In this document: positions 12,634-40,285 of the stretch, one piece after another
How the letters are laid out: every line of letters begins with the position of its first letter
Numbering within the stretch: the first letter of the stretch is position 1
From: Mycobacterium sp.
Lineage (GTDB): Bacteria; Actinomycetota; Actinomycetes; Mycobacteriales; Mycobacteriaceae
Assembly (NCBI GenBank): GCA_035649695.1
Contig: DASRJA010000613.1
Span: forward strand, 1 to 47,542
Length of the DNA stretch: 47,542 bases
Direction of reading: 5' to 3'
Position numbers and translations under genes: made by a program
The notes under the pieces: generated by a model
What the model was told of the DNA's origin: nothing
The model's database searches: none
What the model saw: the letters and a program-made list of their open reading frames with translations, nothing else

Positions 12634-12786
12634 TAAATTCGGCGCGGCATTCTCACTTGCCGTGTCGGACACTCGCCCAGTGTTGTGGGGACTCGTCCCG
12701 TGTCGTACCGTCAACCTAGTTGATTAGCCATCCTAGAGGAATTTCCCTACCGTCCGCGCCTGTCGCCGCTCATGAAAGGGTCACGG

Positions 12787-19051: not shown

Positions 19052-19128
19052 TTTTGTCTCCTCGATTCTTGAAAACGGCACGACCGCAACAGAAGAAGTG
19101 GCCGCCTGTATTTGTTTGGCTGCGAACG

Positions 19129-21848: not shown

Positions 21849-21873
21849 TGTTGTGCGGCCCGCGATCGGCAAT

Positions 21874-21891
21874 GGTGGTGCGTACACCATC
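21874..21891. promoter_or_regulatory. Palindromic box GGTG-N4-CACC; candidate response-regulator site
   Basis: GGTGGTGCGTACACCATC; 14/18 identical to the box at 23596-23613. Confidence 0.5.
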
Positions 21892-21924
21892 GTTTTTGGC
21901 AAATCGATCCGCGACGATGGCGGG

Positions 21925-22296
21925 GTGGCGGACCTCGTGCGTGTCTGGGTCGTCGACGACCAAGCAAGCTTCCGACGGGCTACCGCCGCCACGTTGGATG
22001 CGATGGACGACTTCGTGATGGCCGGCGAATGCGAGACCGGTGAAACCGCGATCGAGCAGATTCCCAACGGCGACGCGGACATCGTGTTGATGGACATCCA
22101 CATGCCGGGGATGGGGGGAATCGAAGCCGCGCGGCACATCTCGGCTGCACGAGCGGACGTGATGATCGTCCTGATGTCCACCTACGACGTCGAGGACCTT
22201 CCCGTTTCGGCCTCGGTCTGCGGTGCCGCGTCGTATCTGCACAAGGAACGCCTGTCTCCAGATTTGCTGAGGCGGATATGGCGAGCGGGCGCCTGA
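21925..22296 (+). CDS. Single-domain response regulator (receiver only)
   Basis: VWVVDDQ, LMDIHMPGMGG, LMST and YLHK; no output domain. Probable GTG start at 21925. Confidence 0.88.
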   Translation: MADLVRVWVVDDQASFRRATAATLDAMDDFVMAGECETGETAIEQIPNGDADIVLMDIHMPGMGGIEAARHISAARADVMIVLMSTYDVEDLPVSASVCGAASYLHKERLSPDLLRRIWRAGA

Positions 22297-22391
22297 GGCT
22301 CACGTCGGCGGTCGGATCGGCGCCCCAACTGCGTGCGCCGAGAACGCTCGCGGTCGCGGCGCTTCGCTCGCCATCGTTGGGCCACGACCTG

Positions 22392-23585
22392 ATGCACCGC
22401 TTCCGGGCCGAACGCTTCGAGTTGTTCCTCTCGGGCCACCTCGCATTGTGGGCGAGCGCCGGGATCCTGCTGCCGCTGTGGGAGTACTTCTGGTTGCTGC
22501 GATCGCCGCGGTTCCTGGCCTTCGTCGCCGTCGGTGCGGCGCAGTGCGTCGTGCTCGCCGTCGGGCTGCGACTGGCCCGGCGAGATCGGTATCAGCCATC
22601 GATCACGCTCGTCTGCATCGGCACGTGGGTCAGCGTTTCGCTGGTCACGCTCATCTCTCCGCCCCTGCTTCCGGCGATGGTCTTGGTGGCGATGGTGCCC
22701 GTCACCTTCGCCGAGCCCTACATCAGCCTGCAGCGCGGACTGGTGTTCACCGTGATCACCGCGGGCTGCGTCCTGGCCATGGCTGCGCTCGCCCGCATCA
22801 CCCACCTGCCAGCCGCGGTAGTCCAAGAGACTCGTTGGATAGAGACCGCGTTCATCGTCATCGCGGTGCCGCTCAACGTCCTTCACGTCATGGTGATCGT
22901 CTGGAACAACGCCTCGGCGTTGAGGACGTCCGAGCGAAAGCTCGCCGAACACGCGGCCGAGCTCGCCGCATCGCGCACCCGGTTGATCACCGCGGCCGAC
23001 GAGGAACGGCGCCGCCTCGAACGCGATCTGCATGACGGCGCCCAACAACACCTCGTCGCGCTGTCGGTGCTCGTCCAGTTGGCGCGCAACGCCGAACGTG
23101 ACCGCGCCGCGCCGTTGCTGACCGAGGCGTCCGAGCTGGTGGATACGGCGATCTCCGAGATTCGTCGGCTCGCCCACGGGATCTATCCCCCGCTCCTGAT
23201 CAGCGGAGGTTTGGCGGAGGCGTTGCCTGCGCTGGCCGCGCGGGCGTCCGTCCCCGTGCAACTAGACCTGGGGCGGATTGACCGCTACCCGCCTTCGACC
23301 GAGGCCGCGTTCTACTACTGCTGCAGCGAAGCGCTGCAGAATGCCGCCAAACACGGCGGCCCGGACACCACCGTCACGGTCACCGCCGTCGCCGACGAAC
23401 AGACGCTCACCTTGACGATCAGCGACACCGGCTGCGGATTCACCCCCGCGATCATGGGGATGGGGCTGACGAACATGACGGACCGCCTTTCGGCCATTGG
23501 CGGTCGGCTCGGGATCGACACGGCGCCTGGACGTGGTACTCGCATCACCGCCGCCGTCGACACTGAGGTGGAGCCGGCCAGCTAG
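22392..23585 (+). CDS. Membrane sensor histidine kinase (HisKA_3 type)
   Basis: About six TM helices; ERRRLERDLHDGAQQ H-box, EALQNAAKH, ISDTGCGF and GLTNMTDRL..GG. Start is 22392 or 22278. Confidence 0.92.
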   Translation: MHRFRAERFELFLSGHLALWASAGILLPLWEYFWLLRSPRFLAFVAVGAAQCVVLAVGLRLARRDRYQPSITLVCIGTWVSVSLVTLISPPLLPAMVLVAMVPVTFAEPYISLQRGLVFTVITAGCVLAMAALARITHLPAAVVQETRWIETAFIVIAVPLNVLHVMVIVWNNASALRTSERKLAEHAAELAASRTRLITAADEERRRLERDLHDGAQQHLVALSVLVQLARNAERDRAAPLLTEASELVDTAISEIRRLAHGIYPPLLISGGLAEALPALAARASVPVQLDLGRIDRYPPSTEAAFYYCCSEALQNAAKHGGPDTTVTVTAVADEQTLTLTISDTGCGFTPAIMGMGLTNMTDRLSAIGGRLGIDTAPGRGTRITAAVDTEVEPAS

Positions 23586-23721: not shown

Positions 23722-24939
23722 GTGTCGACAGTCTCAAGTCCAGCGGGACAACGCTCCACGGCCCGCGCCCAGATGTTGTCGCGGCTGGCCCATAGTGGCC
23801 GAGATGTCATGTGCTACACCGTCGGCGATGAGCGAAACATCCTGCTCAATCACCCCGACCATGTCGAACACGTGCTTGCCGCGAACCGCGCCAACTACAG
23901 CAAGGACACCGCGGCCAACCGCTACTTCCGCACCGAGATCGCAGACGGGATCCTGACCGCCGACGGCGACGGCTGGCGGCGTCAGCGGACCCTGCTCAAC
24001 CCGGTCTTCCGCGACCGGGCACGGCTGGCGACCGCTGCACGCGAAGCCATCGCCGCCCTCGTCGCGCGGCTCGACAAGCTCGCCGACACGGGCCGCGAGC
24101 TGAACCTGTCCGCCGCGATTGGCGAAGTGACACTGTCGATTACGGTCCGCGCGCTGTTCGGGATGAGCCACGAACCGTTCATCGACCAGTGCATTGCGCT
24201 GGGTGGCGCACTGGACGATGCGAACTCCCTGTTGCCAGGTATGGACGGGGCGGGTCCGCGAGATGGGCTCTACCGGCAACTCCGCGCAGCGCTGTCCGCG
24301 TCGGCCCGCGGCGAGTACGGGCCGGCCCTGGCCGCGCTGGCCGACGACCCCGATCACTCCGGCGAGGCGCTCTACCAACAGCTGGTGACGCTGCTCCTGG
24401 CCGGATTCGAGACGACGGCGAATTCGCTCACGTGGGCGTGGATCCTGTTGATGCAACATCCCGACGTCTACGAGGAGTGGCAGCACAGCCTTGGGACGTC
24501 GGCGGCGCTCACCAAGGCCTTGTTCGACGAAACCCTGCGCCTGTACCCGTCGGCCTGGATCCTCGGACGGCGCGCGCTCAGCGACGATCACGTGGGCGGC
24601 GTCGACATCCCGGCCGGAGCCGCCGTAACGATCAGTCCCTTTCTGCTGCATCGGCATCCGAAGTTCTGGGACGACGCCGAAGCGTTCCGTCCGCACCGCT
24701 TCCTTCCGGGCGGCGCGCGGCCCGCTCACCGTTACGCCTACATCCCGTTCGGCGCCGGACACCGCTACTGCATCGGAGCCACCTACGCCCACGACGAGGC
24801 CGAGATGATCCTCGACGAGCTCGGCCGACGGTTCACCTTCCGATCGGAACACGTCGCCGACGCCCGGCCCGAGCACAAGTTCGTGCTACGCGCCCCTGAC
24901 CCGCTGCGCGTCACCGTCCACCGGAGGAATACGCCATGA
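23722..24939 (+). CDS. Cytochrome P450
   Basis: AGFETT I-helix, ETLR (ExxR), PHRF and FGAGHRYCIG heme-Cys motif. GTG start at 23722 after GGAGG. Confidence 0.95.
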   Translation: MSTVSSPAGQRSTARAQMLSRLAHSGRDVMCYTVGDERNILLNHPDHVEHVLAANRANYSKDTAANRYFRTEIADGILTADGDGWRRQRTLLNPVFRDRARLATAAREAIAALVARLDKLADTGRELNLSAAIGEVTLSITVRALFGMSHEPFIDQCIALGGALDDANSLLPGMDGAGPRDGLYRQLRAALSASARGEYGPALAALADDPDHSGEALYQQLVTLLLAGFETTANSLTWAWILLMQHPDVYEEWQHSLGTSAALTKALFDETLRLYPSAWILGRRALSDDHVGGVDIPAGAAVTISPFLLHRHPKFWDDAEAFRPHRFLPGGARPAHRYAYIPFGAGHRYCIGATYAHDEAEMILDELGRRFTFRSEHVADARPEHKFVLRAPDPLRVTVHRRNTP

Positions 24940-25205
24940 CCATTGCGCCCGCATCGCCAACCGAGTTCGGCGCGGCAGTCTGTGCCCTGATCGCAGAGCA
25001 CACGAACCTGCCAGTGGACTTCATCACACCCGACCGTGCCTTCGACGACCTCCCCCTCGATTCCCTCGGGATGCTCGAACTCATCCTGCTCGCCGAGGCC
25101 ACCTTCGGGATCGTCGCCTTGGATGACGACGGGATCGAAGTGCACACCGTCGGTGACGCGATCACATTCCTCGCATCGAAATTGCCAGTCGCACAGAACG
25201 ATTAG
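24936..25205 (+). CDS. Acyl carrier protein 1
   Basis: 89 aa, acidic, LDSL phosphopantetheine site, TVGDAI C-terminus; ATGA overlap with the P450. Confidence 0.88.
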   Translation: MTIAPASPTEFGAAVCALIAEHTNLPVDFITPDRAFDDLPLDSLGMLELILLAEATFGIVALDDDGIEVHTVGDAITFLASKLPVAQND

Positions 25206-25215
25206 GACACAACGC

Positions 25216-26874
25216 ATGAGCAGCCTCACCGATCAGATGTACGCCAACGCGGCGACCAGCCCGCGCGGGATGATCACCGGAACCTTCGAGGACCCGATCC
25301 GGCGCAGTTGGGGCGAGGTGCACGACGAAGCGCGACGGATGGCGGGCGCACTGTCGAAGATGGGTGTCGAGCCGGGTGCCTCGGTCGCGGTGCTGGCCGG
25401 CGATCCAGCCGACGTCGCCCCGCTCGCTCAGGCGGTCTGGATGCGAGGCGCATCGCTGACCATGCTTGCGCAGCCCACGCCGCGCACCGACCTCGCCATG
25501 TGGTTGGCCGACACGCATCGCGCCGCACGCACCGTACGGGCAGCCCTGACCATCGTGGGCGCACCGTTCACCGAGGCAGCCGAACCTCTGAATGCGGCCG
25601 GACAAGACGTGGTCATGCTCGAGGAGCTTCGGACTGGACCCGCCATCGAACCGCTGCATCCCGACGAGTCGGCGATCGCGATGTACCAGCTGACGTCGGG
25701 GTCCACCGGAACCCCCAAGGCTGTCCAGCTCACCCACGCAAACATCGTCGCCAACTCGAACGCCCTGTTCACGGCGACGGACGGCGATGCGGCCACCGAC
25801 GTGATGGTCAGCTGGCTGCCGCTGTCGCACGACATGGGCATGCTCGCGTTCCTCGCGCTGCCGATGCAGTACGGCGTCGAGCTCGTCGCCTCCAGGCCCG
25901 AGGAGTTCCTGCGCCGGCCGGCGCTGTGGGCGGACCTGATCAGCCGCTACCGCGGAACCATCACCTCAGGACCGAACTTCGCGTACGCGCTGCTCGCCCT
26001 GACCCTCGAACGGGCCGACCCCGGCCGCTTCGATCTGTCCAGCCTGCGCGTGGCGATCAACGGCGCCGAACCCATCGACGCCCGCGACACCCGTCGCCTG
26101 GCCGAGGCGGGTGCACGATTCGGACTGCGTCCCGGGGCGATCACCCCGGCGTACGGGATGGCCGAGGCCACGCTGGCGATCACCTTCGACAACTCACCAC
26201 AGGTCAACGTGGACCGGATCAGTCGCATCGATCTGCAGGAACGCGCGCTGGCCACGCCGGACGCCGGAGCCGACGCGTGCGGGGTGGTCTCGGTGGGTCT
26301 TCCGGTGGCGGGCATGGAGATCCGCGTCGTCGACTACTACTCGCGGCCGCGTCCGCCGCGACACGTCGGGTCGATCGAGGTCCGCGGCGCAGCGGTGTCC
26401 GGCGGATACCTCGCCGACCAGGGGTGGCGCGAGGGGGCCTTCATCCGTGACGGCTGGCTGCACACCGGCGACCTCGGCTACTTCGACGAACACGGCAGGT
26501 TGTACGTCTGCGGCCGGACCAAGGACGTGATCGTCATCGCGGGCAACAACATCTACCCGACCGATGTCGAACGCGCCGCCTGCGCCGTGCCCGGCGTCCG
26601 GGCCGGCAACGCGGTGGCCGTCCGCATCGACGCCGGCGAGTTCCGGGAGGGGTTCGCCGTGCTCGCTGAGTCGAAGCTCGCGGCCGATCCCGTTGAGGCG
26701 GAGCGCATTCGCGCCGAGATCGCCCTTCGTGTCAACCAGGCCGTGGGACCCAACGCACGAGCGGTACTGGTGCTGCCGCCGGGCAGTGTCCCCAAGACGG
26801 GGTCGGGCAAGCTGCAACGCCGCAAGGCCGCCGAATTGTTTGCGCGCCTCGACGCCGAGGCGGTGCCGGCATGA
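25216..26874 (+). CDS. Fatty acyl-AMP ligase 1 (FAAL, MbtM/FadD33-like)
   Basis: LTSGSTGTPK, SWLPLSHDMG, NGAEPI, YGMAEATL, HTGDLG, GRTKDVIVIAGNNIYP and KTGSGKL. Confidence 0.9.
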   Translation: MSSLTDQMYANAATSPRGMITGTFEDPIRRSWGEVHDEARRMAGALSKMGVEPGASVAVLAGDPADVAPLAQAVWMRGASLTMLAQPTPRTDLAMWLADTHRAARTVRAALTIVGAPFTEAAEPLNAAGQDVVMLEELRTGPAIEPLHPDESAIAMYQLTSGSTGTPKAVQLTHANIVANSNALFTATDGDAATDVMVSWLPLSHDMGMLAFLALPMQYGVELVASRPEEFLRRPALWADLISRYRGTITSGPNFAYALLALTLERADPGRFDLSSLRVAINGAEPIDARDTRRLAEAGARFGLRPGAITPAYGMAEATLAITFDNSPQVNVDRISRIDLQERALATPDAGADACGVVSVGLPVAGMEIRVVDYYSRPRPPRHVGSIEVRGAAVSGGYLADQGWREGAFIRDGWLHTGDLGYFDEHGRLYVCGRTKDVIVIAGNNIYPTDVERAACAVPGVRAGNAVAVRIDAGEFREGFAVLAESKLAADPVEAERIRAEIALRVNQAVGPNARAVLVLPPGSVPKTGSGKLQRRKAAELFARLDAEAVPA

Positions 26875-27686
26875 GCCCGAAGGCGACGACGAGTGAGGAT
26901 CGCAGCGAGGAACGAGCGAGGACCGGAGCGAGGAGGAGTCGAGGCATTAGCAAAGCCCCGGCCATCGAGCTCGAGCGGCTGCGGATCGTCCGCGGCGGCA
27001 ACACCGTCATAGACGACGTCACCGTGTCCGTCTCGGAGGGCATCATCACCGGGTTGCTCGGCCCGTCCGGCTGCGGCAAGACCACCCTGATGCGCACCAT
27101 CGTCGGGAACCAGAAGATCACCGCGGGGTCGGCGACGGTGCTCGGCCACGCTGCCGGTGCCAAGAGCCTGCGTCGGCATGTCGGCTACGTGACCCAGTCG
27201 CCGAGCATCTACCGAGACCTCACCACCATCGAGAACGTCCGCTACTTCGCGGCTCTGTACGGCATCGGCATGCAGCGCGTGCACGAGGTCGTCGAGGCCG
27301 TCGGACTGACCGGGCAGAAGACCGATCTGGCCGGCAACCTCTCCGGCGGACAGCAGGGCCGGGTGTCGCTCGCGTGCGCACTCGTCTGTGACCCGGACCT
27401 GCTCATCCTCGACGAGCCGACGGTGGGGCTCGACCCGCTGCTGCGCGTCGAACTGTGGGAACAGTTCGTCGACATGGCCGACCGCGGAAAGACGTTGCTC
27501 ATCTCGAGCCACGCCATGGACGAGGCGCGGCAATGCGCCGAACTGATCCTGATGCGCGACGGCGCCATCCTCGCGCACGCCGAGCCCGAAGCGATTCTGC
27601 GCCAAACCAATTGCCTTGACCTGGAATCGGCCTTCGTGGCACTCGTCCGATCCGAGCTCCAGCCCGTCGAGGAGGTCCGGTCATGA
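26871..27686 (+). CDS. ABC-2 type exporter ATP-binding protein
   Basis: GPSGCGKT, LSGGQ, LILDEPTVGLDP and SSH. Confidence 0.93.
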   Translation: MSPKATTSEDRSEERARTGARRSRGISKAPAIELERLRIVRGGNTVIDDVTVSVSEGIITGLLGPSGCGKTTLMRTIVGNQKITAGSATVLGHAAGAKSLRRHVGYVTQSPSIYRDLTTIENVRYFAALYGIGMQRVHEVVEAVGLTGQKTDLAGNLSGGQQGRVSLACALVCDPDLLILDEPTVGLDPLLRVELWEQFVDMADRGKTLLISSHAMDEARQCAELILMRDGAILAHAEPEAILRQTNCLDLESAFVALVRSELQPVEEVRS

Positions 27687-28438
27687 ACCCGACCACCCAC
27701 TGGGCGACGACCGTCCGAATCCTGACTCAGCTGCGTCGCGACCGGCGCGCGATGTTCATGATCCTGGTGATACCGGCGCTGATCACCGTCCTGTTCTACT
27801 CCACGCTGTCGTTGCAGGGGCCCGGGCCCGACGGCTTGACACCGTATGACCGGCTTGGCATCTTCCAGATCGCCGTCATCCCCTGCGCGGTGATGTTCCC
27901 CATCGCCGCCATCACGATGCGCCGCGAACGCGCAAGCGGCACGCTGGACCGGCTGTTCACCACCCCAATGTCCAAGTTGGACCTGCTGGCCGGATACGGC
28001 ACCGCGTTCTCGCTCGGCGCCGTCGCGCAGGCAGTGATCGTCACGCTCGTCGCCTACCGGGTGACGGACCTGAGCACGGCCGGCAGCCCACTGCTCGTGG
28101 CGATGGTCTGCGTGCTGACCGCCGTGCTCGGAGTCGCCCTCGGGTTGTTTTTCAGTGCGTTCGCCGAAACCGAGTTCCAGGCCGTGCAATTCGCGCCGAT
28201 CGTGCTGGTGCCCCAGCTGTTCCTGGCCGGAGTGTTCATTCCTCGCGACGAAATGCCCGGTTGGCTGCATTCGTTCAGCGACGTCCTCCCGCTCACCTAT
28301 GTCGTCGAGGCGTTGCAGCAGATCAGTGCCAACGCAGAGGCGACCCCCCGCATGTGGCGCGACGTCGGTGTCGTTGTCGCCTTCATCATCGCCGCGGTCC
28401 TCGGCGGCGCCGCGACTCTGCGCCGACAGGAAGCCTGA
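27683..28438 (+). CDS. ABC-2 type exporter permease
   Basis: About six TM helices; RERASGTLDRL and LPLTY. Confidence 0.92.
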   Translation: MNPTTHWATTVRILTQLRRDRRAMFMILVIPALITVLFYSTLSLQGPGPDGLTPYDRLGIFQIAVIPCAVMFPIAAITMRRERASGTLDRLFTTPMSKLDLLAGYGTAFSLGAVAQAVIVTLVAYRVTDLSTAGSPLLVAMVCVLTAVLGVALGLFFSAFAETEFQAVQFAPIVLVPQLFLAGVFIPRDEMPGWLHSFSDVLPLTYVVEALQQISANAEATPRMWRDVGVVVAFIIAAVLGGAATLRRQEA

Positions 28439-28441
28439 GCT

Positions 28442-29233
28442 ATGTACACCTTCGCCCACGACGGCGTCACGTTCACCGTCCAGCCCGCCGAGCAGGGCAG
28501 GCACACCGTGGTGTTCGTCAACGGGCTGTTCGGCGGCGGATGGATATGGGAACCCGTCGTCGCCACGCTGACCGCTCAGGGGTACGGGACCGTCGTCACC
28601 GCCGAACCCCTGGCTGCACACGAGACCGCAGAAGACATTCCCGCACTGCTGCAGAGCATCTCGTTGCTGGTCGACACGCTGCCCGATGCGGCCCCGATCC
28701 TCTGCGGGAACTCCCTCGGCGCGCTGGTGGCGATGGAGTTGGCGGCCGCCGAGCCGTCGCGGTGGGCCGGCGTGATCCTCAGCGGAGCACCTGGGCTGGG
28801 TGACGAGCAGGACGCGGACAGCTTCGGTTCCGCGCTGCGCACCCCGTCACTGCGGCTCGGAGACCTCATCGCCGACCGGCTGATTCACGACAAGGAACTG
28901 ATCACACCCGAACTGGTCGAGCGCTGCACCCAGGCGTTGACGCCACGCATCATGCTTCGCGCCGGGCGGGCGTTGCGCGCCACGCGCGGGTATGACGCGC
29001 GAGGGCTGTTGGGCCGCATCGATTCTCCCGTGCTGCTGATCTGCGGCGCCTGCGACGAGATCAGCTCGCCCGCGAAATGGCGAGACGCTGCCCCGATGTT
29101 CCCCGACGCCGACTACGTCGAGATCGCAGGAGCAGGCCACTCGCCGATGCTCGAGAAGCCGGACGAGTTCTCGGCCCTCGTGACTGCCTGGCTCGACACC
29201 ATTCCTGCGCCGCACCTCTCGGGTACCGGCTAA
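28442..29233 (+). CDS. Alpha/beta hydrolase
   Basis: GNSLG nucleophile, GACDEI (Asp) and GAGHSP (His). Confidence 0.88.
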   Translation: MYTFAHDGVTFTVQPAEQGRHTVVFVNGLFGGGWIWEPVVATLTAQGYGTVVTAEPLAAHETAEDIPALLQSISLLVDTLPDAAPILCGNSLGALVAMELAAAEPSRWAGVILSGAPGLGDEQDADSFGSALRTPSLRLGDLIADRLIHDKELITPELVERCTQALTPRIMLRAGRALRATRGYDARGLLGRIDSPVLLICGACDEISSPAKWRDAAPMFPDADYVEIAGAGHSPMLEKPDEFSALVTAWLDTIPAPHLSGTG

Positions 29234-29262
29234 CCGCAACAGCTTTCACGAAGGAACCGACC

Positions 29263-29526
29263 ATGGATTGCACGCTTTCCGCCTACGACACTCTCGTCGA
29301 TTGGCTGATCGACAGGATCGCCGTCTACCTCGCCACCAGCCCAGCTGCGATCGAGACCGATAAGACGTTCGGAGACTACGGCCTGGACTCGGCCTTCGCG
29401 CTCAATCTGTGCACCGACCTGGAAACCGAACTCGGAATCCTCGTCGAACCCACCATCGCGTGGGACTACCCCACCATCGGTGACATCGCCGGTCATCTCG
29501 CCGAAAGCACCGGGAGGACCCGATGA
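29263..29526 (+). CDS. Acyl carrier protein 2
   Basis: FGDYGLDS and WDYPTI motifs; ATG at 29263 after AAGGA; ATGA overlap with the PKS. Confidence 0.9.
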   Translation: MDCTLSAYDTLVDWLIDRIAVYLATSPAAIETDKTFGDYGLDSAFALNLCTDLETELGILVEPTIAWDYPTIGDIAGHLAESTGRTR

Positions 29527-32483
29527 CTCCGATCGCAAGCCAGATTGCTGTCGTCGGCATGGACTGCCGATTCCCCTGTGCCACAGACATCGACGAGATG
29601 TGGCGGCTGCTAATGGCCGGAGAGGTCGCCAAGAGTGTGGTGCCCGCCGACCGGTGGGACATCGACCGCTTCCACAGCACACAGATACGGCCGGGCACCA
29701 TGAACACCCGGTACGCCCACTTCATCGACGACGCCGACCTGTTCGATCACGAATTCTTCGGTATCTCACCGCTCGAAGCGGCCGCCCTCGACCCGCAGCA
29801 ACGCCTGGTCCTGCAATCCGTTTGGCGCGCATTGGAAGACGCAGCCATCGACCCGCGCGCACTTGCCGGCACCGAGGCAGGTGTGTTCGTGGGCATGATG
29901 CTGAGCGAGTGGGGCGCGCTCAATCTGTTGGACTTTCCATCGCTGACGTCGCAGCGCGGAATCGGCGGTGGACACTCGATGGTCGCAAACCGGGTGTCGT
30001 ACCACCTCAACCTCACCGGGCCGAGCGTCACGGTCGACACGGCGTGCTCATCGTCTCTTACGGCCGTACACCTCGGCTGCCAGGCTTTGGCCTCAGGCGA
30101 CACCGACCTCGTCGTGGCCTCAGGTGTGAACATTCTGCTGACCCCTGCACTGTCCATCTTCTATACCCAGGCCGGGCTGTCCGCACCGGACGGCACCTGT
30201 AAACCGTTCAGCGCCAACGCCGACGGCATCGGCCGCGGAGAGGGTGTCGGCACTGTGGTGCTGCGGCGGCTCGACGACGCGGTCGCCGACCGCCAGCCCA
30301 TCTATTCGGTCATCGCCGGCAGTGCCACCAACCAGGACGGCAAGAGCAGCGGTATCACCGCGCCGAACCGCTGGGCTCAGTCCAAGGTGATGCAGCGCGC
30401 ACTCGATCGCGCGGGCGCGGCCGCCAGCGATGTCACGTTCGTCGAAGCCCATGGCACGGGTACGACGTTGGGCGACATGATCGAAGCGAACGCGCTCGGC
30501 GACCTGCACCGCACCGGCCGCGGCGCCCCGTGCCTCCTCGGCTCAATCAAGGGCAACATCGGGCACGCCGAAGGGGCGGCAGGCATCGCGTCGCTGATCA
30601 AGACCAGCCTCGCGCTGTCGAGGGGGTTGCTTCCCCCGACCGTTGCGGCAGCCGGACCCAACCCGGCCCTACGGCTGGACCAGCAGGGCCTGACGCTGGC
30701 CACCACGGCAGCCGAGCTGGGCGATGGCCCGGTGCTCGCAGGTGTCAGCTCGTTCGGGATCGGCGGCAGCAACGTGCACGTGCTATTGACCTCCCCTCCC
30801 GCCGTCACGGCGGTGCCCGAGGTCCATGACGACGACGAGGTGGGTGTCATCACCGTGTCCGCGCACTCATCGGATGCGTTGCGCCGCAACGCCACTGCGC
30901 TGGCCAACGCCCTCGATGAGAACAACGACGACGCCGTCGCCGCCTTGTGCTACACCAGCAACCAAGTCAAGTCGTCGCTCAAACACCGGTTCGCTGCAGC
31001 GGGCACCCGCAACGAGTTGATCGGTGCCCTGCTCGGTTACGACATGTCCGCGCGCACCGAGAAGTCGCCTCGTCGCGGCGGCAGGCTGCGGATCGGCCTG
31101 CTGTGCACCGGACAGGGTGCCCAGTACCCCGGGATGACTCAGGCGCTCTACCGCACCTGCCCGCCGTACCGTGAGCATCTGACGCGGGCCGCCGCCGCCG
31201 TCGATACCACCTTCGCGGGACCTAATGGATTGCTCACCAACATGTTTCGCGGCGGCGACGTCATCGACACCACCGAGTACGCTCAACCGGCACTGTTCGC
31301 GGTGTCGTATGCCATCGGCGCGGCGCTACTCGACCTCGGTGTCGAGCCGACGTTCCTGATCGGCCACAGCGTGGGCGAATTCGCGGCTGCAGCGCTAGCT
31401 GAGGTCTTGACGCTCGACGAAGCGGCCGGCCTGGTGGTTGCCCGTGGCGCGGTGATGCAGCAACTGCCGAAGGGCGGTGCGATGAGTGCGGTCGACGTCC
31501 CCGCCGAACAGGTTGCGAATCTTGTTGCAGAAGAGCCAACCTGTGGAATCGCCGCTATCAACGGACCGGCCTCGACGGTGGTGTCCGGGCCCGCCGCCGC
31601 TGTCGATCGCATCACCACAGCACTTGCCCGCGGCGGCGCAAAGGTCACGTCACTGCCCGTCTCGCACGCTTTCCATTCGCCCCTCATGGCGCCTGCGCAG
31701 GACGCGTTCCGCGCTATCGCCGGCGCAGTGACACCGCGGAAGGCGACGATCCCGATCATCTCGACCGTGCACGGCACGATCGTCGACGGCACCGACATGG
31801 ACGCCGACTACTGGGCCGCCCAGCTCACGTCGACGGTGCGATTCATGGATGCGATGCGTACCGCCACCACGCAGGCGTCCCCGACCCACCTCGTCGAACT
31901 CGGCCCGCGCACGACCCTGCTGGCGCATGCGCGGCGCGGCGGCATCGACATGGACGTGGCAACCCTCGCGCCCTGCGTCGGGCCCGACGACGACGGCGCC
32001 GGTTTCGCGCGGGTCGTCGCCCGTCTGTACAGCGACGGGCTCACCACCCAGTTCGACCATCTCTACGATGCGGAGTCACGGACTCTGAAACGGTTGCCGC
32101 CCTATGTCTTCGGCGACGGATCCCGGTTCTGGCGCGTACTGGACACAGCGGCGGTCACTGGCTCGGTATCCACTGCGACGTCGGTCGTGGCTACTGAACC
32201 AGGCCCCGCGTCCGAGATAGCCGACGCCGCGCCGCTCGCCTCGCGTATCCGGCAGCTCATCGCCGACATCGGCGGCTACACCGTCGAGCAGATCGATCCC
32301 AACGCGCTCCTCGGCGCGGACCTGGGCTACGACTCCCTGCTGCAGCTTCGCCTCATCGAGTCGATCCGCACCGAGTATCCAGAGCTGCAGGAGGCGCCTG
32401 TCAGCGAATTGTTAAGTGCGATAGAGAATGTCGACGATGTAGTGCGCTACGTCGCCGACCGGTTGGCGGAGGTGGCCCGATGA
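29523..32483 (+). CDS. Single-module type I PKS (KS-AT-ACP)
   Basis: KS: DPQQR, DTACSSS, HGTGT, NIGH. AT: GQGAQ, GHSVG, HAFH (malonyl-type). ACP: LGYDSL. At 986 aa there is no room for KR, DH, ER or TE. Confidence 0.95.
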   Translation: MTPIASQIAVVGMDCRFPCATDIDEMWRLLMAGEVAKSVVPADRWDIDRFHSTQIRPGTMNTRYAHFIDDADLFDHEFFGISPLEAAALDPQQRLVLQSVWRALEDAAIDPRALAGTEAGVFVGMMLSEWGALNLLDFPSLTSQRGIGGGHSMVANRVSYHLNLTGPSVTVDTACSSSLTAVHLGCQALASGDTDLVVASGVNILLTPALSIFYTQAGLSAPDGTCKPFSANADGIGRGEGVGTVVLRRLDDAVADRQPIYSVIAGSATNQDGKSSGITAPNRWAQSKVMQRALDRAGAAASDVTFVEAHGTGTTLGDMIEANALGDLHRTGRGAPCLLGSIKGNIGHAEGAAGIASLIKTSLALSRGLLPPTVAAAGPNPALRLDQQGLTLATTAAELGDGPVLAGVSSFGIGGSNVHVLLTSPPAVTAVPEVHDDDEVGVITVSAHSSDALRRNATALANALDENNDDAVAALCYTSNQVKSSLKHRFAAAGTRNELIGALLGYDMSARTEKSPRRGGRLRIGLLCTGQGAQYPGMTQALYRTCPPYREHLTRAAAAVDTTFAGPNGLLTNMFRGGDVIDTTEYAQPALFAVSYAIGAALLDLGVEPTFLIGHSVGEFAAAALAEVLTLDEAAGLVVARGAVMQQLPKGGAMSAVDVPAEQVANLVAEEPTCGIAAINGPASTVVSGPAAAVDRITTALARGGAKVTSLPVSHAFHSPLMAPAQDAFRAIAGAVTPRKATIPIISTVHGTIVDGTDMDADYWAAQLTSTVRFMDAMRTATTQASPTHLVELGPRTTLLAHARRGGIDMDVATLAPCVGPDDDGAGFARVVARLYSDGLTTQFDHLYDAESRTLKRLPPYVFGDGSRFWRVLDTAAVTGSVSTATSVVATEPGPASEIADAAPLASRIRQLIADIGGYTVEQIDPNALLGADLGYDSLLQLRLIESIRTEYPELQEAPVSELLSAIENVDDVVRYVADRLAEVAR

Positions 32484-34159
32484 CCATCGTCGATATCGTT
32501 GCGGCCCGCGCAACGTCGGAATCGCTGGCATACGTCTATCTCGCAGACGGCACCCCGGCCAGTGAGCTGCGCTGGTCGTTCGCGGACACGGCGAGCCGCA
32601 CCCGCGCCTATGCCGCGCACCTCCGCGATCGAGGTATCAGTGCCGGACACCGCGTCGTGCTCGCGATCAATCCGAGCCTCGACTACATCGCGGCCCTGTA
32701 CGGCATCATGTGGCTGGGCGCCATCCCCGTCCCGTGCTTCCCGCCCCTGCGCACAAAGGAACTGGACCGCTTCGGAGCGATCACGGTCGACTGCGCGCCG
32801 ACGGCCATCGTCATCGACGAGATGTACCGCGAGCCGATCGAGGCTCTGCGCCGTCGCCTCGAGTCCGTCGGCCTGGAGCCGACGGTCGTCTATGTCGAGC
32901 AGGTCGACGACGCAGGCGATGACTCCCCGCCCGTACCCACTGCTGCGCGTGACATCGCGCTGATCCAATACACCTCCGGCTCGACCGGGACGCCGAAGGG
33001 TGTCTGCCTCACCCACGCCAACCTGGTCAGTAACTGCGAGGCGCTCGGTCGCAACATGGGTCACGACCCGGACCGGATCGGGTTCTCCTGGCTGCCGCCC
33101 TATCACGACATGGGACTGATGGGCACGATCCTGGTGTCGATGTTCCAGGGTGTCCCGCTGGTCACGATGTCGCCGCTGCACTTCGTGCAGTCGCCCCGCC
33201 GCTGGCTCGAGGCCATCACCCAGTACAAGGTGACGATCGCCGTGGGACCGAACTTCTCCCTCGACATGTGCTCCGATGTGTTGGCCGACGGCGACAACAC
33301 CGACCTGGATCTCTCCACACTCGAGCGGCTGTACTGCGGGGCCGAGCCGATCAGCATCGATACGCTCGCACGGTTCGAGAAAGCCGCGGCGCCGCTGGGT
33401 TTCAACCTGGACGCCTTGGTGCCGTGCTACGGGATGGCGGAGACGACGCTGTACGTGTCGGGGAAGAGCCCCGGCCGCAACTATCACACCGAGCCCTCAC
33501 CCGAACCGTCCGCGCTGCCGCGGGACGTCGTCAGCTGCGGGAAGGTCGACCCCGAGCACACCGTTCGGATCGTCGAGCCCACCAGTCTCGAGGCTTTGAG
33601 CGACGGACGCATAGGTGAAATCTGGGTGGCAGGCCCAAGCGTCGCGGCGGGCTACCACGATCGGCATTACCTGACACGCAGGGTATTTGGCGCGCGAATC
33701 GCCGGCGAGCTGGGTGGGTACTTGCGGACGGGTGATCTCGGCTTCGTCCGATCCGGTGAGCTGTTCGTCACGGGGCGCATCAAAGACCTGATCATCGTCA
33801 ACGGGCGCAATATCTATCCGCAGGACGTCGAGGCCAACGTTGGACGCGCAGACCCCGCCGTCCGTATCGCGGTGGCCTTCTCGATTCCCGGTGACAACTC
33901 CGAACAGCTGTGTGTCATCGCCGAAGTCGGCCAGCCGCAGGTGACCGCACAGGTGCACGCTCGGTTGGTCGATGCGATACGGGCCAGCGTGACATCGGAA
34001 TTCGGCATCCGACCGCATGTCCACATCGGACCGAAGCGCACGGTGCCGACCACGACCAGCGGGAAGGTACGCCGTCAGGAGACCCGGCGGATGTTCCTGG
34101 CCGACGAACTACTTTCCGTCCCAATCGATTCACCAGCCACACAGGAGTGCACGGCATGA
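32480..34159 (+). CDS. Fatty acyl-AMP ligase 2 (CayA/PgnD/JamA-like position)
   Basis: YTSGSTGTPKG, SWLPPYHDMGL, CGAEPI, CYGMAETTL, RTGDLG, GRIKDLIIVNGRNIYPQD and TTSGKV. Confidence 0.92.
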   Translation: MTIVDIVAARATSESLAYVYLADGTPASELRWSFADTASRTRAYAAHLRDRGISAGHRVVLAINPSLDYIAALYGIMWLGAIPVPCFPPLRTKELDRFGAITVDCAPTAIVIDEMYREPIEALRRRLESVGLEPTVVYVEQVDDAGDDSPPVPTAARDIALIQYTSGSTGTPKGVCLTHANLVSNCEALGRNMGHDPDRIGFSWLPPYHDMGLMGTILVSMFQGVPLVTMSPLHFVQSPRRWLEAITQYKVTIAVGPNFSLDMCSDVLADGDNTDLDLSTLERLYCGAEPISIDTLARFEKAAAPLGFNLDALVPCYGMAETTLYVSGKSPGRNYHTEPSPEPSALPRDVVSCGKVDPEHTVRIVEPTSLEALSDGRIGEIWVAGPSVAAGYHDRHYLTRRVFGARIAGELGGYLRTGDLGFVRSGELFVTGRIKDLIIVNGRNIYPQDVEANVGRADPAVRIAVAFSIPGDNSEQLCVIAEVGQPQVTAQVHARLVDAIRASVTSEFGIRPHVHIGPKRTVPTTTSGKVRRQETRRMFLADELLSVPIDSPATQECTA

Positions 34160-35097
34160 GTCAGCTGGCATCCACACGACACCCGGCACCGAACGAGCAA
34201 GCACCGCTGCCTGAACGCGACGTCCTGGCATCGCGCCTCGCCTACCTCACGGTCGGCATCCCCACCTTGGGAACGGTCGCCGCCGTCGGCTACGCGATCA
34301 GCGACGGGCTGTGGCTGTCCGACGTCCTGGTGTTCCTTGCGATGTACCTGATCACAGGGCTGGGGGTGGAGGGGGGCCTGCACCGCTACTTCACGCATCG
34401 CTCGTTCGTGGCGTCCGAACCAGTGAAGGTGGTCCTCGCGGTCGCAGGCTCGATGGCCGCGCAGGGTCCCGTGATCTTCTGGGTGGCGAATCACCGGCTA
34501 CACCACGCCTTCGCCGACACCGATCGCGATCCGCATTCCCCCCAACCGCAGGGACCAGGGTGGTGGGGCCGGGTAAAGGGACTGTGGCACGGCCACATTG
34601 GCTGGCTGTTCACGGTGAACAAGATCGACTGGAGTCGTCACACTCGCGACTGGTTGCAGGACCGCCGCGTGATGAAGATCAACGGGCACTACTTCACCGT
34701 GGTTCTGGCGGGCATCGTCATTCCGGGACTGGTCGGTGGCCTTGCCACTCAATCGATGCACGGCTTCGTCGGAGGCATCCTCTGGGGCGGCTTCGTTCGG
34801 ATCTTCGCACTCGACCATGCGACCTGGGTGGTGAACTCCCTCGGCCACACAATCGGAAACCGCGAGTTCCACATCCGCGACCAGAGCCGCAATATCGGAG
34901 TTCTCGCGCCACCCACCATGGGCGGGTCGTGGCACAACAACCATCACGCCCGGCCCAGCCTCGCGCAGACCCGCCGACACTGGTGGCAGCTCGATCTCGT
35001 GGGGGATTTCATCGGGCTGCTCGACCGCGTCGGACTCGTCAGCAACGTCCGCTACCCCAACACGCAAGAAGAGAACCATGATGATCGAAACAGCTAG
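34156..35097 (+). CDS. Membrane delta9-like desaturase/acetylenase 1
   Basis: His boxes HRYFTH, HRLHH, NSLGH and HNNHH, plus DPHSP. ATG at 34156 overlaps the FAAL stop. Confidence 0.92.
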   Translation: MSQLASTRHPAPNEQAPLPERDVLASRLAYLTVGIPTLGTVAAVGYAISDGLWLSDVLVFLAMYLITGLGVEGGLHRYFTHRSFVASEPVKVVLAVAGSMAAQGPVIFWVANHRLHHAFADTDRDPHSPQPQGPGWWGRVKGLWHGHIGWLFTVNKIDWSRHTRDWLQDRRVMKINGHYFTVVLAGIVIPGLVGGLATQSMHGFVGGILWGGFVRIFALDHATWVVNSLGHTIGNREFHIRDQSRNIGVLAPPTMGGSWHNNHHARPSLAQTRRHWWQLDLVGDFIGLLDRVGLVSNVRYPNTQEENHDDRNS

Positions 35098-36088
35098 TCC
35101 AACAACGGCTTCGGATTCCAGACAAGAGTCGCTGGCCCGGGCAATCGTGCAGTTGAACCCGAAGAGCGCGCGCGCCAAGCGCGTCGTCGCCGCGGTCACC
35201 GTTGGGATACCCGCGGTCGGCTTCGCCATTGCCGTGTACCTGGGCGTTGCCGGCACGGCCACTGCGTTGGACTACCTACTCTTCGCGGTGTTCTACGTGA
35301 TTCAGATGTTCGGCGTCAGCATCGGGTTTCATCGCTACCTCGCGCACAACTCGTTCAAGACCTCACCGTTCTTCGAGGGCGTACTGATGGTCACCGGGTC
35401 GATGGCCCTCGAAGGTCCAGTCCTGTTTTGGGTGAGCACCCACCGCCGCCACCACCGCTACTCCGACGAACTGGGCGATCCGCACTCACCGAACCTCAGT
35501 GGCAGCGGACTGGCCGGGAAGCTCAAAGGTCTTTGGTACGCCCATATTCCGTGGATGTTCAGCGACCAGGAGTCCCGAGTGACCGTGTTCGCTCCCGATG
35601 TGGTGCGGGATCGGCGCCTCTACTTCTACAACCGGACGTATCCCGTCTGGGCGTTGACGAGCCTGCTGCTCCCCGCGCTGTTGGGGTTCACGATCAGGGG
35701 CACGGCCGCAGCGGCGTTCTCCGGTTTCATCTTCGGTGGACTGGCGCGGGTGTTCGTCGCCAACCAGGCGGCCTGGTGCGTGGGGTCCGTCAGCCACATG
35801 ATCGGTTCGCGACCGTTCGCGACCAGAGATGACAGCGCCAACAACTGGCCGGTGGCCATCCTCACGTTCGGCGAGGGCCTGCAGAACAATCACCATGCCT
35901 TCCCGGGCGCCTACCGTCACGCAATGCGTTGGTGGGAACCAGATCTCAGCGGGTGGGTGATCGCCATACTCGCGAAGGCCGGCATCGTCTGGAGCCTCAA
36001 GATGCCGGACCGACAGAAGATCAATAGCCGTCTGCGACGCAATCGCCCGTCGGTGAAGTCCACCGACGAACTTAGGAAAGAAGGTTGA
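35078..36088 (+). CDS. Membrane delta9-like desaturase/acetylenase 2
   Basis: HRYLAH, HRRHH, DPHSP, GSVSH and GEGLQNNHH. Confidence 0.92.
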   Translation: MMIETASPTTASDSRQESLARAIVQLNPKSARAKRVVAAVTVGIPAVGFAIAVYLGVAGTATALDYLLFAVFYVIQMFGVSIGFHRYLAHNSFKTSPFFEGVLMVTGSMALEGPVLFWVSTHRRHHRYSDELGDPHSPNLSGSGLAGKLKGLWYAHIPWMFSDQESRVTVFAPDVVRDRRLYFYNRTYPVWALTSLLLPALLGFTIRGTAAAAFSGFIFGGLARVFVANQAAWCVGSVSHMIGSRPFATRDDSANNWPVAILTFGEGLQNNHHAFPGAYRHAMRWWEPDLSGWVIAILAKAGIVWSLKMPDRQKINSRLRRNRPSVKSTDELRKEG

Positions 36089-36091
36089 ACA

Positions 36092-36382
36092 ATGTTCGGA
36101 CGCAATAGAACCGCCACGATAGACGGCCCGCTCACACACGAGAAGCTACGGTCGTGGTTGATCGCGGAGCTGGCGCGGATGGTGAAGATCGACCAGGCAC
36201 AGGTCGACACCGCCAAGCCGTTCCAGGCCTACGGCCTGGACTCGCGTGCCGCCGTTCAAGTTTCGGGGGCTTTGGAGAAGGTTGTGGAGCGTCGGCTCTC
36301 GCCAGGAATCCTCTTCGACCACGAGACGATCGACGAGCTCGCGGATCACCTCGTGGGTGAACTGCAGCTCGAGCGCGGCTGA
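36092..36382 (+). CDS. Acyl carrier protein 3
   Basis: LRSWL, FQAYGLDS and FDHETIDELA. Confidence 0.9.
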   Translation: MFGRNRTATIDGPLTHEKLRSWLIAELARMVKIDQAQVDTAKPFQAYGLDSRAAVQVSGALEKVVERRLSPGILFDHETIDELADHLVGELQLERG

Positions 36383-36398
36383 GCACAGGAGATGCGTC

Positions 36399-37484
36399 AT
36401 GACGAAATTCGTCACCCTCACCGATCCTGACCCACGGTTCACGGAGTTCATCGAGAAGAGCAACACCCTCGAAGGCGCGAAGCTCGCTGCCGCCATCCCG
36501 AAGGAGTACGTGCAACCCTCACTGGCACGCGGGCTCCTCGGCCTTGCGGCCAGCCTGTCGGTGTATGTCGGCGCCATCGTCGCGATGGCCGTTCTCGATC
36601 GGTGGTACCTGGTAGTTCCCCTGGCTATCTTGGCGGGTCTGGGCGGGTGGGGCCTGCACTGCATCGCACACGAGTGCGGGCACGGATCATTCTCCCGAAA
36701 TCGCCGGTTGAACTTCGTGATCGGGCACCTGACCCTTGTGCATCTGCTGTATCCGTTTCACGCGTGGCGTCATGTTCACAACCTGCATCACGCCCACACC
36801 AACAGCCTGGAGCTCGACACCGACTGGGCGCCCATTCCCGAGGCGGTCTACCACCGGATGGCGTTGCGGGACCGAATGATCTACATCAGTGTGCGCACGT
36901 GGGCGGTGTGGGGCGGGACCATCCACCACTGGCTGCAATCGGGTCTGCGCCCGTCCTACTTCCCGAAGCGAGAGATGCGCCGGGACGCGCGCCGGTCGAT
37001 GGCGTTCGTTGCCGTCGTCGGAGGCGCCTACCTCGCCGCGTTGACGTACTTCACCGGCTGGCAAGGTCTACTGCTGTACTTCGTCGCGCCGTGGTTCGCC
37101 ACCCACGTGTGGTTCAGTATCACGACACTGATGCATCACAGCGCCGAGGACATCCCATACCTGACGTCCGAGCACTGGACGCGCAATGCCAGCAAGTTGC
37201 TCGTGACGACGGATTTCGTGTATCCGCGGTGGCTGCTGTTCCTCACCCACAACATCTCGCTGCATACCGCACATCACGTGTCGCCCGCCGTGCCGTTCTA
37301 CCACCTCGGCAAGGCGCAGGCTGCGCTGCTGCAGGCGTACCCCGAGATGATGCGGGTGGAGAAGGCGAGTGCGCGCAAACTATGGAACATCCTGCGCAAC
37401 TGCAGGTTCTACGATCCGGTCTCCGGGCTGTATTCGACGCGCCCGATGCGTCGGGTCGTCCCCCAGCAGAAGGAATCAGCGTGA
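36399..37484 (+). CDS. Membrane delta12/omega6-like desaturase/acetylenase 3
   Basis: HECGH, HNLHH and HTAHH His boxes, plus VPFYHL. ATG at 36399 after AGGAG. Confidence 0.92.
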   Translation: MTKFVTLTDPDPRFTEFIEKSNTLEGAKLAAAIPKEYVQPSLARGLLGLAASLSVYVGAIVAMAVLDRWYLVVPLAILAGLGGWGLHCIAHECGHGSFSRNRRLNFVIGHLTLVHLLYPFHAWRHVHNLHHAHTNSLELDTDWAPIPEAVYHRMALRDRMIYISVRTWAVWGGTIHHWLQSGLRPSYFPKREMRRDARRSMAFVAVVGGAYLAALTYFTGWQGLLLYFVAPWFATHVWFSITTLMHHSAEDIPYLTSEHWTRNASKLLVTTDFVYPRWLLFLTHNISLHTAHHVSPAVPFYHLGKAQAALLQAYPEMMRVEKASARKLWNILRNCRFYDPVSGLYSTRPMRRVVPQQKESA

Positions 37485-38317
37485 GCGCCGGATTGTTTGT
37501 GGCCCAGGCCTTGACACGCGCACATCGGATCGCACCGCGGGCTGCTGGGTACGTCTGGACGAGCATCTTCACCAACACCCGCGGGCTCGGCACCGCGCCG
37601 AACGACCTGTGCCCCTTGGGCGCCAGCCGCGTGGAACTGACGGGCGTGCCGAGGGTCGCGGCGGTGTATGTGTGGGGCAGCGCGGAGCCGACGGTTCTTG
37701 CGCTGCACGGATGGGGAGCCGACAGCACCACCATGTCAAGCGTGGTGGCTGCGGCAGCCGACAGCGGCGAGTCGGCGGTGTGCTTCGACGCACCTGGGCA
37801 CGGAGCCTCGCCGGGAACACAAGCGACGATGAGGGAGTATTCAGACGCTACTCTCGCTGTCCTGCAACGGTTTCCGAGCATCACCACCATCGTCGCCCAC
37901 TCATTTGCGGCGATCGCCGCAGTCTCGGCCGTCGCAGCGGCCGCCGGCAACAGCGTGCGATTTCTGCTCCTGCTCGCTCCGGCGTGCTCACTGTCGGACG
38001 TTCTCGAACGATGGGCCGCTCATCGGGATCTGCCACCGGCGGTGGTCGAGCAGATTCGTCGTGAACTACGGCGCCGCGACGGCATGGAGGTATCTCATTG
38101 GGATGTCAGAACACTCGGTCTTCCGGCGTCGGTCCGAGTTCAGATCCTGCACGATCCGGCGGACGCCTTGGTGCCAGTGAGCGACTCGTACCGGATCGCG
38201 GCCAGCATCTCGGCGGAGATCCAAGCGACTATGCCAGGCGTTGGCCACCACCGGGTCATCTCCTGCGACGAGATGCGACGGGCTTTGACTGCGCGGGCGA
38301 CCGCTTCCGATCGTTGA
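37481..38317 (+). CDS. Alpha/beta hydrolase, probable thioesterase of the polyyne core
   Basis: LHGWG, FDAPGHG, AHSFA (Ser), HDPAD (Asp) and GHHR (His); GTGA overlap with desaturase 3. Confidence 0.85.
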   Translation: MSAGLFVAQALTRAHRIAPRAAGYVWTSIFTNTRGLGTAPNDLCPLGASRVELTGVPRVAAVYVWGSAEPTVLALHGWGADSTTMSSVVAAAADSGESAVCFDAPGHGASPGTQATMREYSDATLAVLQRFPSITTIVAHSFAAIAAVSAVAAAAGNSVRFLLLLAPACSLSDVLERWAAHRDLPPAVVEQIRRELRRRDGMEVSHWDVRTLGLPASVRVQILHDPADALVPVSDSYRIAASISAEIQATMPGVGHHRVISCDEMRRALTARATASDR

Positions 38318-40167: not shown

Positions 40168-40285
40168 GAATTCGCCCTACTTTTCTATCGGCTGGTTCGC
40201 TGAGGCCGACCAAGCACCCTAACGCGCCGGCATTTGTCGCCGGGATTGGCGCTCGATGGCTCGAAGCACTAATTTTCCGGAGGTG

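Follow-up and report, generated by a model that had tools for sequence, protein, structure and literature searches.

A conserved mycobacterial extension of the polyyne gene cluster family, predicted to build a polyyne into a larger lipid

The subject of this study is a gene cluster of Mycobacterium sp. on contig DASRJA010000613.1 of assembly GCA_035649695.1 (our genome G000, 92% complete); the window that we analyzed is the full 47,542-nt stretch. Fourteen intact genes, all on the + strand, span positions 23722 to 38317 in the order cytochrome P450, acyl carrier protein 1 (ACP1), fatty acyl-AMP ligase 1 (FAAL1), ABC ATPase, ABC permease, hydrolase 1 (Hyd1), ACP2, polyketide synthase (PKS), FAAL2, desaturase 1 (Des1), Des2, ACP3, Des3 and thioesterase. 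We call the first eight genes, from the P450 to the PKS, the arm, and the last six, from FAAL2 to the thioesterase, the core. The 13 intergenic junctions measure between -20 and +29 bp, with 4-bp overlaps at seven of them, among these the one at 32480-32483 between the end of the PKS gene and the first letters of FAAL2. A preliminary description of this DNA reported a 13-gene operon; all the genes that it named are intact and on one strand, but the count is 14, and the single operon is inferred from spacing. The arm content that it listed (P450, two extra free ACPs, a second FAAL, an ABC exporter, a second hydrolase and a PKS with ketosynthase, acyltransferase and ACP domains, KS-AT-ACP) is present. 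All 14 genes are under purifying selection, with dN/dS values from 0.02 to 0.35 (simple counting method, against genomes G306, G308 and G302); because these values are low throughout and the gene set recurs in other genomes, the cluster is not a chance assembly.

The arm begins with the P450 (23722..24939; PF00067, motifs FGAGHRYCIG and AGFETT), which is 75% identical to the P450 of Mycolicibacterium rhodesiae NBB3 and likely oxidizes a fatty-acyl chain. It has no close solved or characterized relative, its PDB matches being distant (best E 1e-36), and an automatic JGI label, 'enediyne E7', was not used. ACP1 (24936..25205; PP-binding, DS motif) is an AcpP-like free carrier. FAAL1 (25216..26874) scores 713 bits against a cut-off of 572 for the PRK07768 family, which we take to be that of Pks16/Rv1013; the FAAL-type insertion is visible against a CoA ligase, and the tree supports the assignment. 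The exporter pair consists of an ATPase (26871..27686; PF00005, with a DrrA-like match under the cut-off) and an ABC-2 permease (27683..28438; PF01061, TIGR00025 at 136.9 against a cut-off of 146.9). Hyd1 (28442..29233) is an alpha/beta hydrolase with a GNSLG nucleophile motif, whose S91, D205 and H233 are invariant in 43 sequences. Its PDB matches are only distant esterases and C-C hydrolases, its Atlas matches are generic alpha/beta hydrolases, and its match to the O-acyltransferase OlsI reaches 56 bits against a cut-off of 385. Two Hyd1 relatives are fused to a carrier, which is of the ACP2 type in one and of the ACP1 type in the other; these fusions fit an acyl-ACP enzyme, lost stop codons may be their cause, and Hyd1 is likely an acyl-ACP release or transfer enzyme. 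ACP2 (29263..29526) is a starter-type carrier that arrived together with the PKS. The last arm gene encodes a 986-aa single-module type I PKS (29523..32483), identified by its Pfam domains, tree position and catalytic residues: C175, H310 and H348 in the KS, S616 and HAFH in the AT, and S938 in the ACP. These residues are kept in 39-41 of 41 close homologues, the exceptions being mostly partial sequences. The HAFH motif is presumably of the malonyl type. Because the PKS has no ketoreductase, dehydratase, enoylreductase or thioesterase domain, and hence neither reducing nor release functions, its likely reaction is the addition of malonyl, with a 3-oxo-acyl chain as the outcome.

The core (32480-38317) has the order FAAL, two desaturases, ACP, desaturase and thioesterase, the same six-gene polyyne consensus that is given, without rubredoxin, in the available text of the Lin et al. 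preprint. FAAL2 (32480..34159; AMP-binding) has the FAAL insertion and ACP3 (36092..36382; PP-binding, DS motif, dN/dS 0.02-0.15) its serine, the comparison being with one CoA ligase from the window. Des1 (34156..35097) is JamB/CayB-like, with a DesA-family match and the boxes HRYFTH, HRLHH and HNNHH; Des2 (35078..36088; PF00487) is JamB/CayC-like, with HRYLAH, HRRHH and QNNHH; and Des3 (36399..37484; PF00487, His-rich boxes) is delta-12-like and holds the CayE/PgnH position. The thioesterase (37481..38317; Hydrolase_4) carries the Ser-Asp-His motifs AHS, HDPAD and GHH (a motif-level assignment), and AHS, HD..D and GH are kept in relatives. All three membrane desaturases have intact HxxHH/QxxHH boxes; according to Kim et al. 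(PMC9828172), the His boxes, including QxxHH, are required for polyyne formation, and a FAAL, an ACP and three desaturases together with a thioesterase are enough to obtain a free polyyne acid in Proteobacteria. No rubredoxin gene was found 3' of the thioesterase or elsewhere in the assembly, so the cassette lacks one gene of the seven-gene definition of Mullins et al.; these authors themselves noted two Mycobacteriaceae without rubredoxin inside the polyyne clade (PMC8406139), and in heterologous expression rubredoxin merely raised the yield (PMC9828172). The link to characterized enzymes is indirect, through NBB3, whose PKS and P450 are 73-75% identical to those of the window and whose core proteins are 34-57% identical to massilin proteins (desaturases 52-57%; PMC9098870 supplement). 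By analogy with cay and pgn, the core likely makes a terminal polyyne fatty acid. In a wider draw of Actinomycetes, one core was found in 400 genomes, with rubredoxin and cut by a contig end, too few to judge; 15 of the 17 family-level Des2 matches are lone desaturases with no triad in 3.8 kb and were not counted as cores. On a separate contig of G000 (C234, L133 1-1894), just after the fatty acid synthase gene, lies another gene resembling FAAL2 (65%), together with the first part of a Des1-like gene at the contig end; no second Des2 or Des3 was found in the assembly, and this piece is a remnant, an unassembled second cluster or contamination.

The clusters for protegencin (pgn), caryoynencin (cay), cepacin (ccn), collimonin (col) and massilin (mas) share the six-gene order and His boxes of the window core, and their known products are free acids. 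Compared with them, the window has another FAAL, two further free ACPs, a type I PKS, another hydrolase and an ABC exporter, and lacks rubredoxin and the thiolase gene for self-protection. The statement that characterized polyyne clusters have no type I PKS held in the literature that we searched, which included few subscription journals and did not extend to MIBiG; neither did this literature yield a product of any mycobacterial polyyne cluster. The novelty claimed for the architecture stands in part. The content goes beyond that of characterized clusters, but a P450 has a precedent in cay, where it tailors caryoynencin (PMC9322674), a stand-alone FabF-type KS occurs in cepacin-type clusters, and the NBB3 set is already in print. 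MycrhN_0261-0274 of NBB3 (CP003169) have the same 14 annotations in the same internal order (PKS AEV70917, 73% identical), although arm and core lie head-to-head there and no two-component set adjoins them. These 14 genes appear, without remark in the available part, in Supplementary Data 2 of PMC9098870; its main text does not mention mycobacteria, and a term search of its table, in which many genes are unnamed, gave NBB3's as the single 'polyketide synthase family' entry. The available text of the Lin et al. preprint calls the Mycobacterium polyyne group uncharacterized; PMC8460268 and PMC9518984, as far as available, give general background only.

Whether arm and core occur together was examined in congeners and in metagenomes. 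Des3 was found in 19 of the 399 congeners scored (from one draw of 400), and Hyd1 in seven of 400, six at 75-90% identity and one at 38%. In all six genomes with a close Hyd1 orthologue the core adjoins the arm, in tandem in G306, G307 and G308 and head-to-head in G301, G302 and G305; the G305 layout was joined through a 141-bp contig overlap, and the G307 arm, in an assembly that is 68% complete, is divided between two contigs, with part of it present twice. Metagenomes gave 15 loci, 13 of them with a close Hyd1; nine of these are too short, and the four that reach the junction all have FAAL2 (three tandem, one head-to-head). Two metagenome loci are 99-100% identical to the window and are not independent. 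A P450 search of 270 genomes returned five close orthologues, every one core-linked and from the genomes above. In G488, no arm gene lies within 1.5 kb of the P450s, which are 40% identical. Across 36 non-independent pairs, identity in the arm correlates with identity in the core (Spearman 0.82). The proposed co-occurrence of the two halves was thus borne out in 6/6 arm-bearing genomes of 400 congeners, and the halves diverge together. The flanks vary between genomes, with the exception of hadAB in G308: the cluster moved between neighbourhoods as a unit.

The arm-bearing cores form one clade (support 86) with the tandem cores nested inside, from which we infer one acquisition followed by one inversion. 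This inversion took exactly the eight arm genes, and the link to the core survived it. The PKS/FAAL2 overlap, which the preliminary description had stressed, is present in the window and in four of six tandem relatives; it is absent from the other two, where 76-110 bp are inserted, and the arm is inverted at four other loci. The inserts (L032, L100) are purine-rich and hold a ribosome-binding-like stretch of their own. Since the arm is tandem in three genomes and head-to-head in three, the overlap at 32480 is incidental, and as it is not conserved among relatives we rejected it as the key feature. The core had been described as 'fused' to the arm; the ancestral-looking layout is head-to-head, so the relation is one of linkage and not of fusion.

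The ancestry of the arm was traced through its PKS and carriers. In the tree, the PKS is sister to PKSs of clusters linked to DarB (support 0.999). This DarB-linked clade occurs in 13 of 200 congeners (16 matches, three of which are arm PKSs); in every case a FAAL of FAAL1's family comes after the PKS, separated from it by a type II thioesterase in seven, and DarB- and/or DarA-like genes lie just upstream in 11 of 13 loci. One DarB-like protein scored above the StlD/DarB cut-off and another below; the DarA label is an Atlas match at 0.94, with no match in Pfam or NCBIfam. A 55% identical Microbispora PKS (P0045) falls outside both PKS clades. The three free ACPs of the window, 11-31% identical, each belong to a class of their own. 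ACP2 shares 44-48% identity with the carriers of the DarB-linked clusters and 31% with ACP3, and its origin as a duplicate of the core ACP was rejected, as it is nearer to the DarB-linked ACPs. With PKSs related at 52-55% and ligases at about 52-58%, the resemblance to mycobacterial DarB/DarA (StlD) systems covers carrier, PKS and ligase; the window cluster itself has no DarB or DarA. Two acyl-CoA dehydrogenase genes lie between Hyd1 and ACP2 in the G305 arm (L053 2862-6271), as expected of a starter carrier, and the G302 arm retains a type II thioesterase after its PKS. Just 3' of the latter gene is a CHASE2-TIR domain protein (L051 14493-16127).

The mycobacterial DarB-DarA-ACP-PKS-(type II thioesterase)-FAAL clusters are an observation in their own right (L054, L113-L124, L129; L054 additionally has an O-methyltransferase, an FAD monooxygenase and MmpL). 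From their gene content they likely make dialkylresorcinol or quinone lipids, and the literature searched contained no description of them. DarB condenses beta-keto- and enoyl-thioesters (PMC6836626), a substrate range that would fit a non-reducing module as supplier of the beta-keto-acyl chain. Another contig of G000 (C503 228-9598) holds a FAAL, an ACP, a PKS (46% to the window's), a type II thioesterase and MmpL, together with a hydrolase and a glycosyltransferase-like gene.

The remaining arm genes resemble a second module. In G404 and L109, relatives of P450, Hyd1, ACP1 and FAAL (36-50% identical) occur with an FAD dehydrogenase and MmpL, in the order P450, FAD dehydrogenase, hydrolase, ACP, FAAL, MmpL (L055 8412-17225 in G404; L109 3465-12691); no PKS or desaturase matches were found around them in 30 and 17 kb. 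ACP1 is 36-41% identical to the carrier of these modules and 11% to ACP3. FAAL1 clusters with the ligases of both arm-related modules (support 1.0), whereas between the two the support is 0.385. With these two ancestries, the arm is a mosaic of two load-and-modify modules that share one FAAL.

A second FAAL was also found where the arm is missing. Among the 13 arm-less cores of the sister clade, one of them on a 1.7-kb contig, a second FAAL lies right after the thioesterase in 11 of the 12 fetched, at a gap of -14 to at most +23 bp (10/10 measured); nine of these FAALs are intact and pass the PRK05850 (FadD21/28-type) cut-off, and two are frameshifted. The published cluster of M. cookii has the same second FAAL after its core. 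In the tree this FadD21/28-type FAAL is unrelated to FAAL1, so a second FAAL was recruited twice. In two of the 11 (G653 and G502) a Pks2/Mas-type PKS and an F420 oxidoreductase come next, and PapA5-type, DrrABC and additional PKS genes face this set, in a locus like that for phthiocerol dimycocerosate (PDIM), although the PapA5-type matches are under their cut-offs (G653: L090 14026-19999 and L131; G502: L095 and L132, with the core frameshifted in the assembly). This gene content suggests polyyne-tipped waxes. The FAAL28-Mas/PDIM and FAAL22/FAAL29 pathways share with the window the logic by which a FAAL loads a pre-made acid on a PKS; the window differs in its PRK07768-type FAAL and non-reducing single module, and has no PapA5 or MmpL in the cluster. 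The combination of FadD21/28-type FAAL, reducing PKS and PapA5-type gene is thus found next to the G653 and G502 cores and not in the window. Seven arm-less clusters (L084, L085, L086, L088, L090, L095, L025) have, directly 5' of the core FAAL, a gene like that for a hot-dog-fold acyl-CoA thioesterase, which is absent from arm-bearing ones.

Based on this evidence, we propose that the arm re-activates the released polyyne acid, oxidizes it and extends it on the PKS to an exported polyyne lipid, a reading to which we give an even chance. As in cay and pgn, FAAL2 would load a long-chain acid on ACP3, the three desaturases would add conjugated triple bonds, and the thioesterase would free the acid. 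FAAL1 would then adenylate this acid and load it on ACP1 for the P450 and on ACP2 for the PKS; extension with malonyl on the PKS would yield a 3-oxo-acyl thioester or, in the case of iteration, a pyrone; Hyd1 would free the chain as the 3-oxo acid, its methyl ketone or a lactone; and the ABC pair would export the product. The order of the steps between re-loading by FAAL1 and release by Hyd1 is not fixed by the data. Release and re-loading have a precedent in phenolic glycolipid synthesis, where FAAL22 is followed by FAAL29 (PMC11837247). The preliminary description had offered either a PKS-extended or a two-chain polyyne lipid; the recruitment of a second FAAL, in part with a PKS, in the sister clade favours the PKS-extended form, although arm modules also occur without the core.

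Alkyne starter cassettes, namely JamABC for jamaicamide and the similar TtuABC, offer a more direct variant of this route. In JamABC, a FAAL, an ACP and a JamB-type desaturase make an alkynyl PKS starter (PMC7063234); its one desaturase puts one alkyne on a C6 chain, which is passed on while on the same ACP. In the window there are instead three desaturases and a thioesterase for release, and a second FAAL/ACP set precedes a lone non-reducing module. A hand-over from ACP3 directly to the KS would be less likely than re-loading, given a PKS that came with a carrier of its own and an intact thioesterase.

It is important to consider several points that weigh against the proposed re-activation and extension. 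First, the six-gene core alone gives a free polyyne in Proteobacteria (PMC9828172), and both arm modules exist without a core (the P450-hydrolase-ACP-FAAL set in G404 and L109, and ACP-PKS-FAAL in 13/200 genomes), so that the arm could act on ordinary fatty acids. Second, the co-occurrence of arm and core goes back to a single acquisition, which together with the sister clade makes two events in total; furthermore, the G302 core is nearer to the tandem group and its arm to the head-to-head group, which hints at recombination. Third, nine of the 11 sister-clade FAALs have no adjacent PKS, in G653 and G502 the core may just have inserted next to a wax locus that was already there, and there are cores without a second FAAL or a PKS close by in G393 (no second FAAL in 7 kb downstream), G229 and G003. 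The last two are from other genera and have thiolases instead of the second FAAL. Fourth, the FAAL1 tree (0.385) does not tell which ACP FAAL1 serves, and the cluster contains no redox partner gene, nor was rubredoxin found in the assembly. The thiolase genes upstream of the core, three in G229 (L025 7243-12687) and one in G003 (L028 7392-13153), recall the MasL self-protection thiolase; the G003 locus further resembles cepacin-type clusters in its Rieske-type oxygenase and MFS pump.

Among the alternatives, the one that survives best, though we consider it unlikely, is that the arm builds its own oxidized or 3-oxo chain from an ordinary fatty acid and that Hyd1, acting as a transacylase, joins the polyyne chain to it as an ester or lactone. 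Two FAALs, three free ACPs of different classes and two hydrolases exceed the needs of a single chain, the relatives of the PKS supply a two-chain condensation by DarB, and Hyd1 has its weak OlsI match; but that match lies far below its cut-off, the cluster has no condensing enzyme (DarB, FabH-type KS, PapA5 or C domain), and this reading offers no explanation for the sister clade's second FAAL. The genomes were also searched for DarB: tblastn gave no DarB/StlD or DarA match in G000, and DarB was found in none of G301, G302, G306, G307 and G308 (0/5, with no positive control and two assemblies 65-68% complete), and of the seven arm-bearing genomes G305 has DarB/DarA, in a cluster separate from the arm. 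As DarB was found neither in the window cluster nor, within these searches, in the other six genomes, a polyyne dialkylresorcinol was rejected as the product.

Somewhat less probable still is that two separate, co-regulated pathways share only the exporter and the promoter region, the core making a free polyyne acid and the arm a different oxidized lipid. The self-sufficiency of the core in Proteobacteria (PMC9828172), the intact thioesterase motifs and the four loci at which the halves face apart fit this reading, and, because arm modules occur without the polyyne core, the arm could have a product of its own. However, the full eight-gene arm was never found without the core, whether in the six congeners or around the five P450 orthologues of the 270 genomes, the cluster changed neighbourhoods as a unit, and a second FAAL was recruited twice.

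It is improbable that the arm acts first, making an extended and oxidized fatty acid that FAAL2 then loads on ACP3, with the PKS setting the chain length or oxidation of the precursor. The arm does hold a full set for loading, modification and release (FAAL1, ACPs, P450, PKS, Hyd1), the FabF-type KS of cepacin-type clusters may likewise supply a precursor, and the tandem form has the arm upstream; but a PKS without reducing domains would pass on an unstable 3-oxo acid, polyyne FAALs accept ordinary C14-C18 acids (PMC9828172), and relatives differ in gene order, which makes order uninformative on the sequence of reactions. That the mycobacterial triad yields a polyene or a single alkyne is very improbable: rubredoxin was not found, by 2021 no actinobacterial polyyne had been linked to a gene cluster (PMC8406139), and the Lin et al. 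preprint calls the clade uncharacterized, but the order and His boxes match a triad shown to make tetraynes (PMC9828172), the NBB3 orthologues are 52-57% identical to massilin desaturases, and rubredoxin just boosted the yield in heterologous expression (PMC9828172).

Immediately 5' of the cluster lies a two-component set (21177-23585, + strand) that accompanies the tandem form. It consists of a NarL/LuxR-type response regulator (21177..21848; Pfam Response_reg and GerE), which likely regulates the tandem form and whose counterparts upstream of the G306, G307 and G308 arms are 92-99% identical; a single-domain response regulator of uncertain start (21853..22296; NCBIfam receiver-domain matches); and a membrane sensor histidine kinase (22278..23585; HisKA_3 and HATPase_c), the last two also kept in G306-308. 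A promoter and terminator scan of the window was not informative (no sigma-70 sites; 11 sites resembling terminators, where chance would give 7.1 +/- 3.1), the cluster edges have only short, chance-like repeat pairs, and the Rfam search of the window gave no match. An MmpS/MmpL pair (12772-16115), 7.6 kb upstream, was not counted in the cluster because it is not seen beside it in relatives. The window also contains a GH6 cellulase-family gene (40256-41281), a weak GH5-like gene (9885-11024), an AidB-like lactonase-family protein with a long N-terminal extension and a match under the cut-off (18137-19564, - strand), and a 238-aa open reading frame with no family match (19929-20645, - strand).

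Our study describes a real, conserved and uncharacterized extension of the polyyne cluster family, whose gene set had been printed but not discussed and whose product is a prediction. The bacterial polyynes of known cluster in the literature covered are free fatty acids made by Proteobacteria. From this cluster family, a larger lipid with a polyyne as one of its parts is predicted; M. rhodesiae NBB3 is a named carrier with a complete genome. The strongest reason for interest in the cluster is the twofold recruitment of a second FAAL. We tentatively suggest, with less confidence than we attach to the route itself, that mycobacteria use polyyne fatty acids as PKS starters and arrived at this twice, with a PRK07768-type FAAL and a non-reducing KS-AT-ACP module here and with a FadD21/28-type FAAL and a Mas-type PKS in the sister clade. 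If true, this would be a natural route for supplying a type I PKS with a polyyne starter, something that so far has only been engineered, with single alkynes (PMC7063234). The products would then be envelope or secreted lipids with a polyyne tip, for which the literature searched gave no example; such lipids would be naturally clickable and Raman-visible, and would point to reactive, self-labelling lipids in mycobacterial envelopes.

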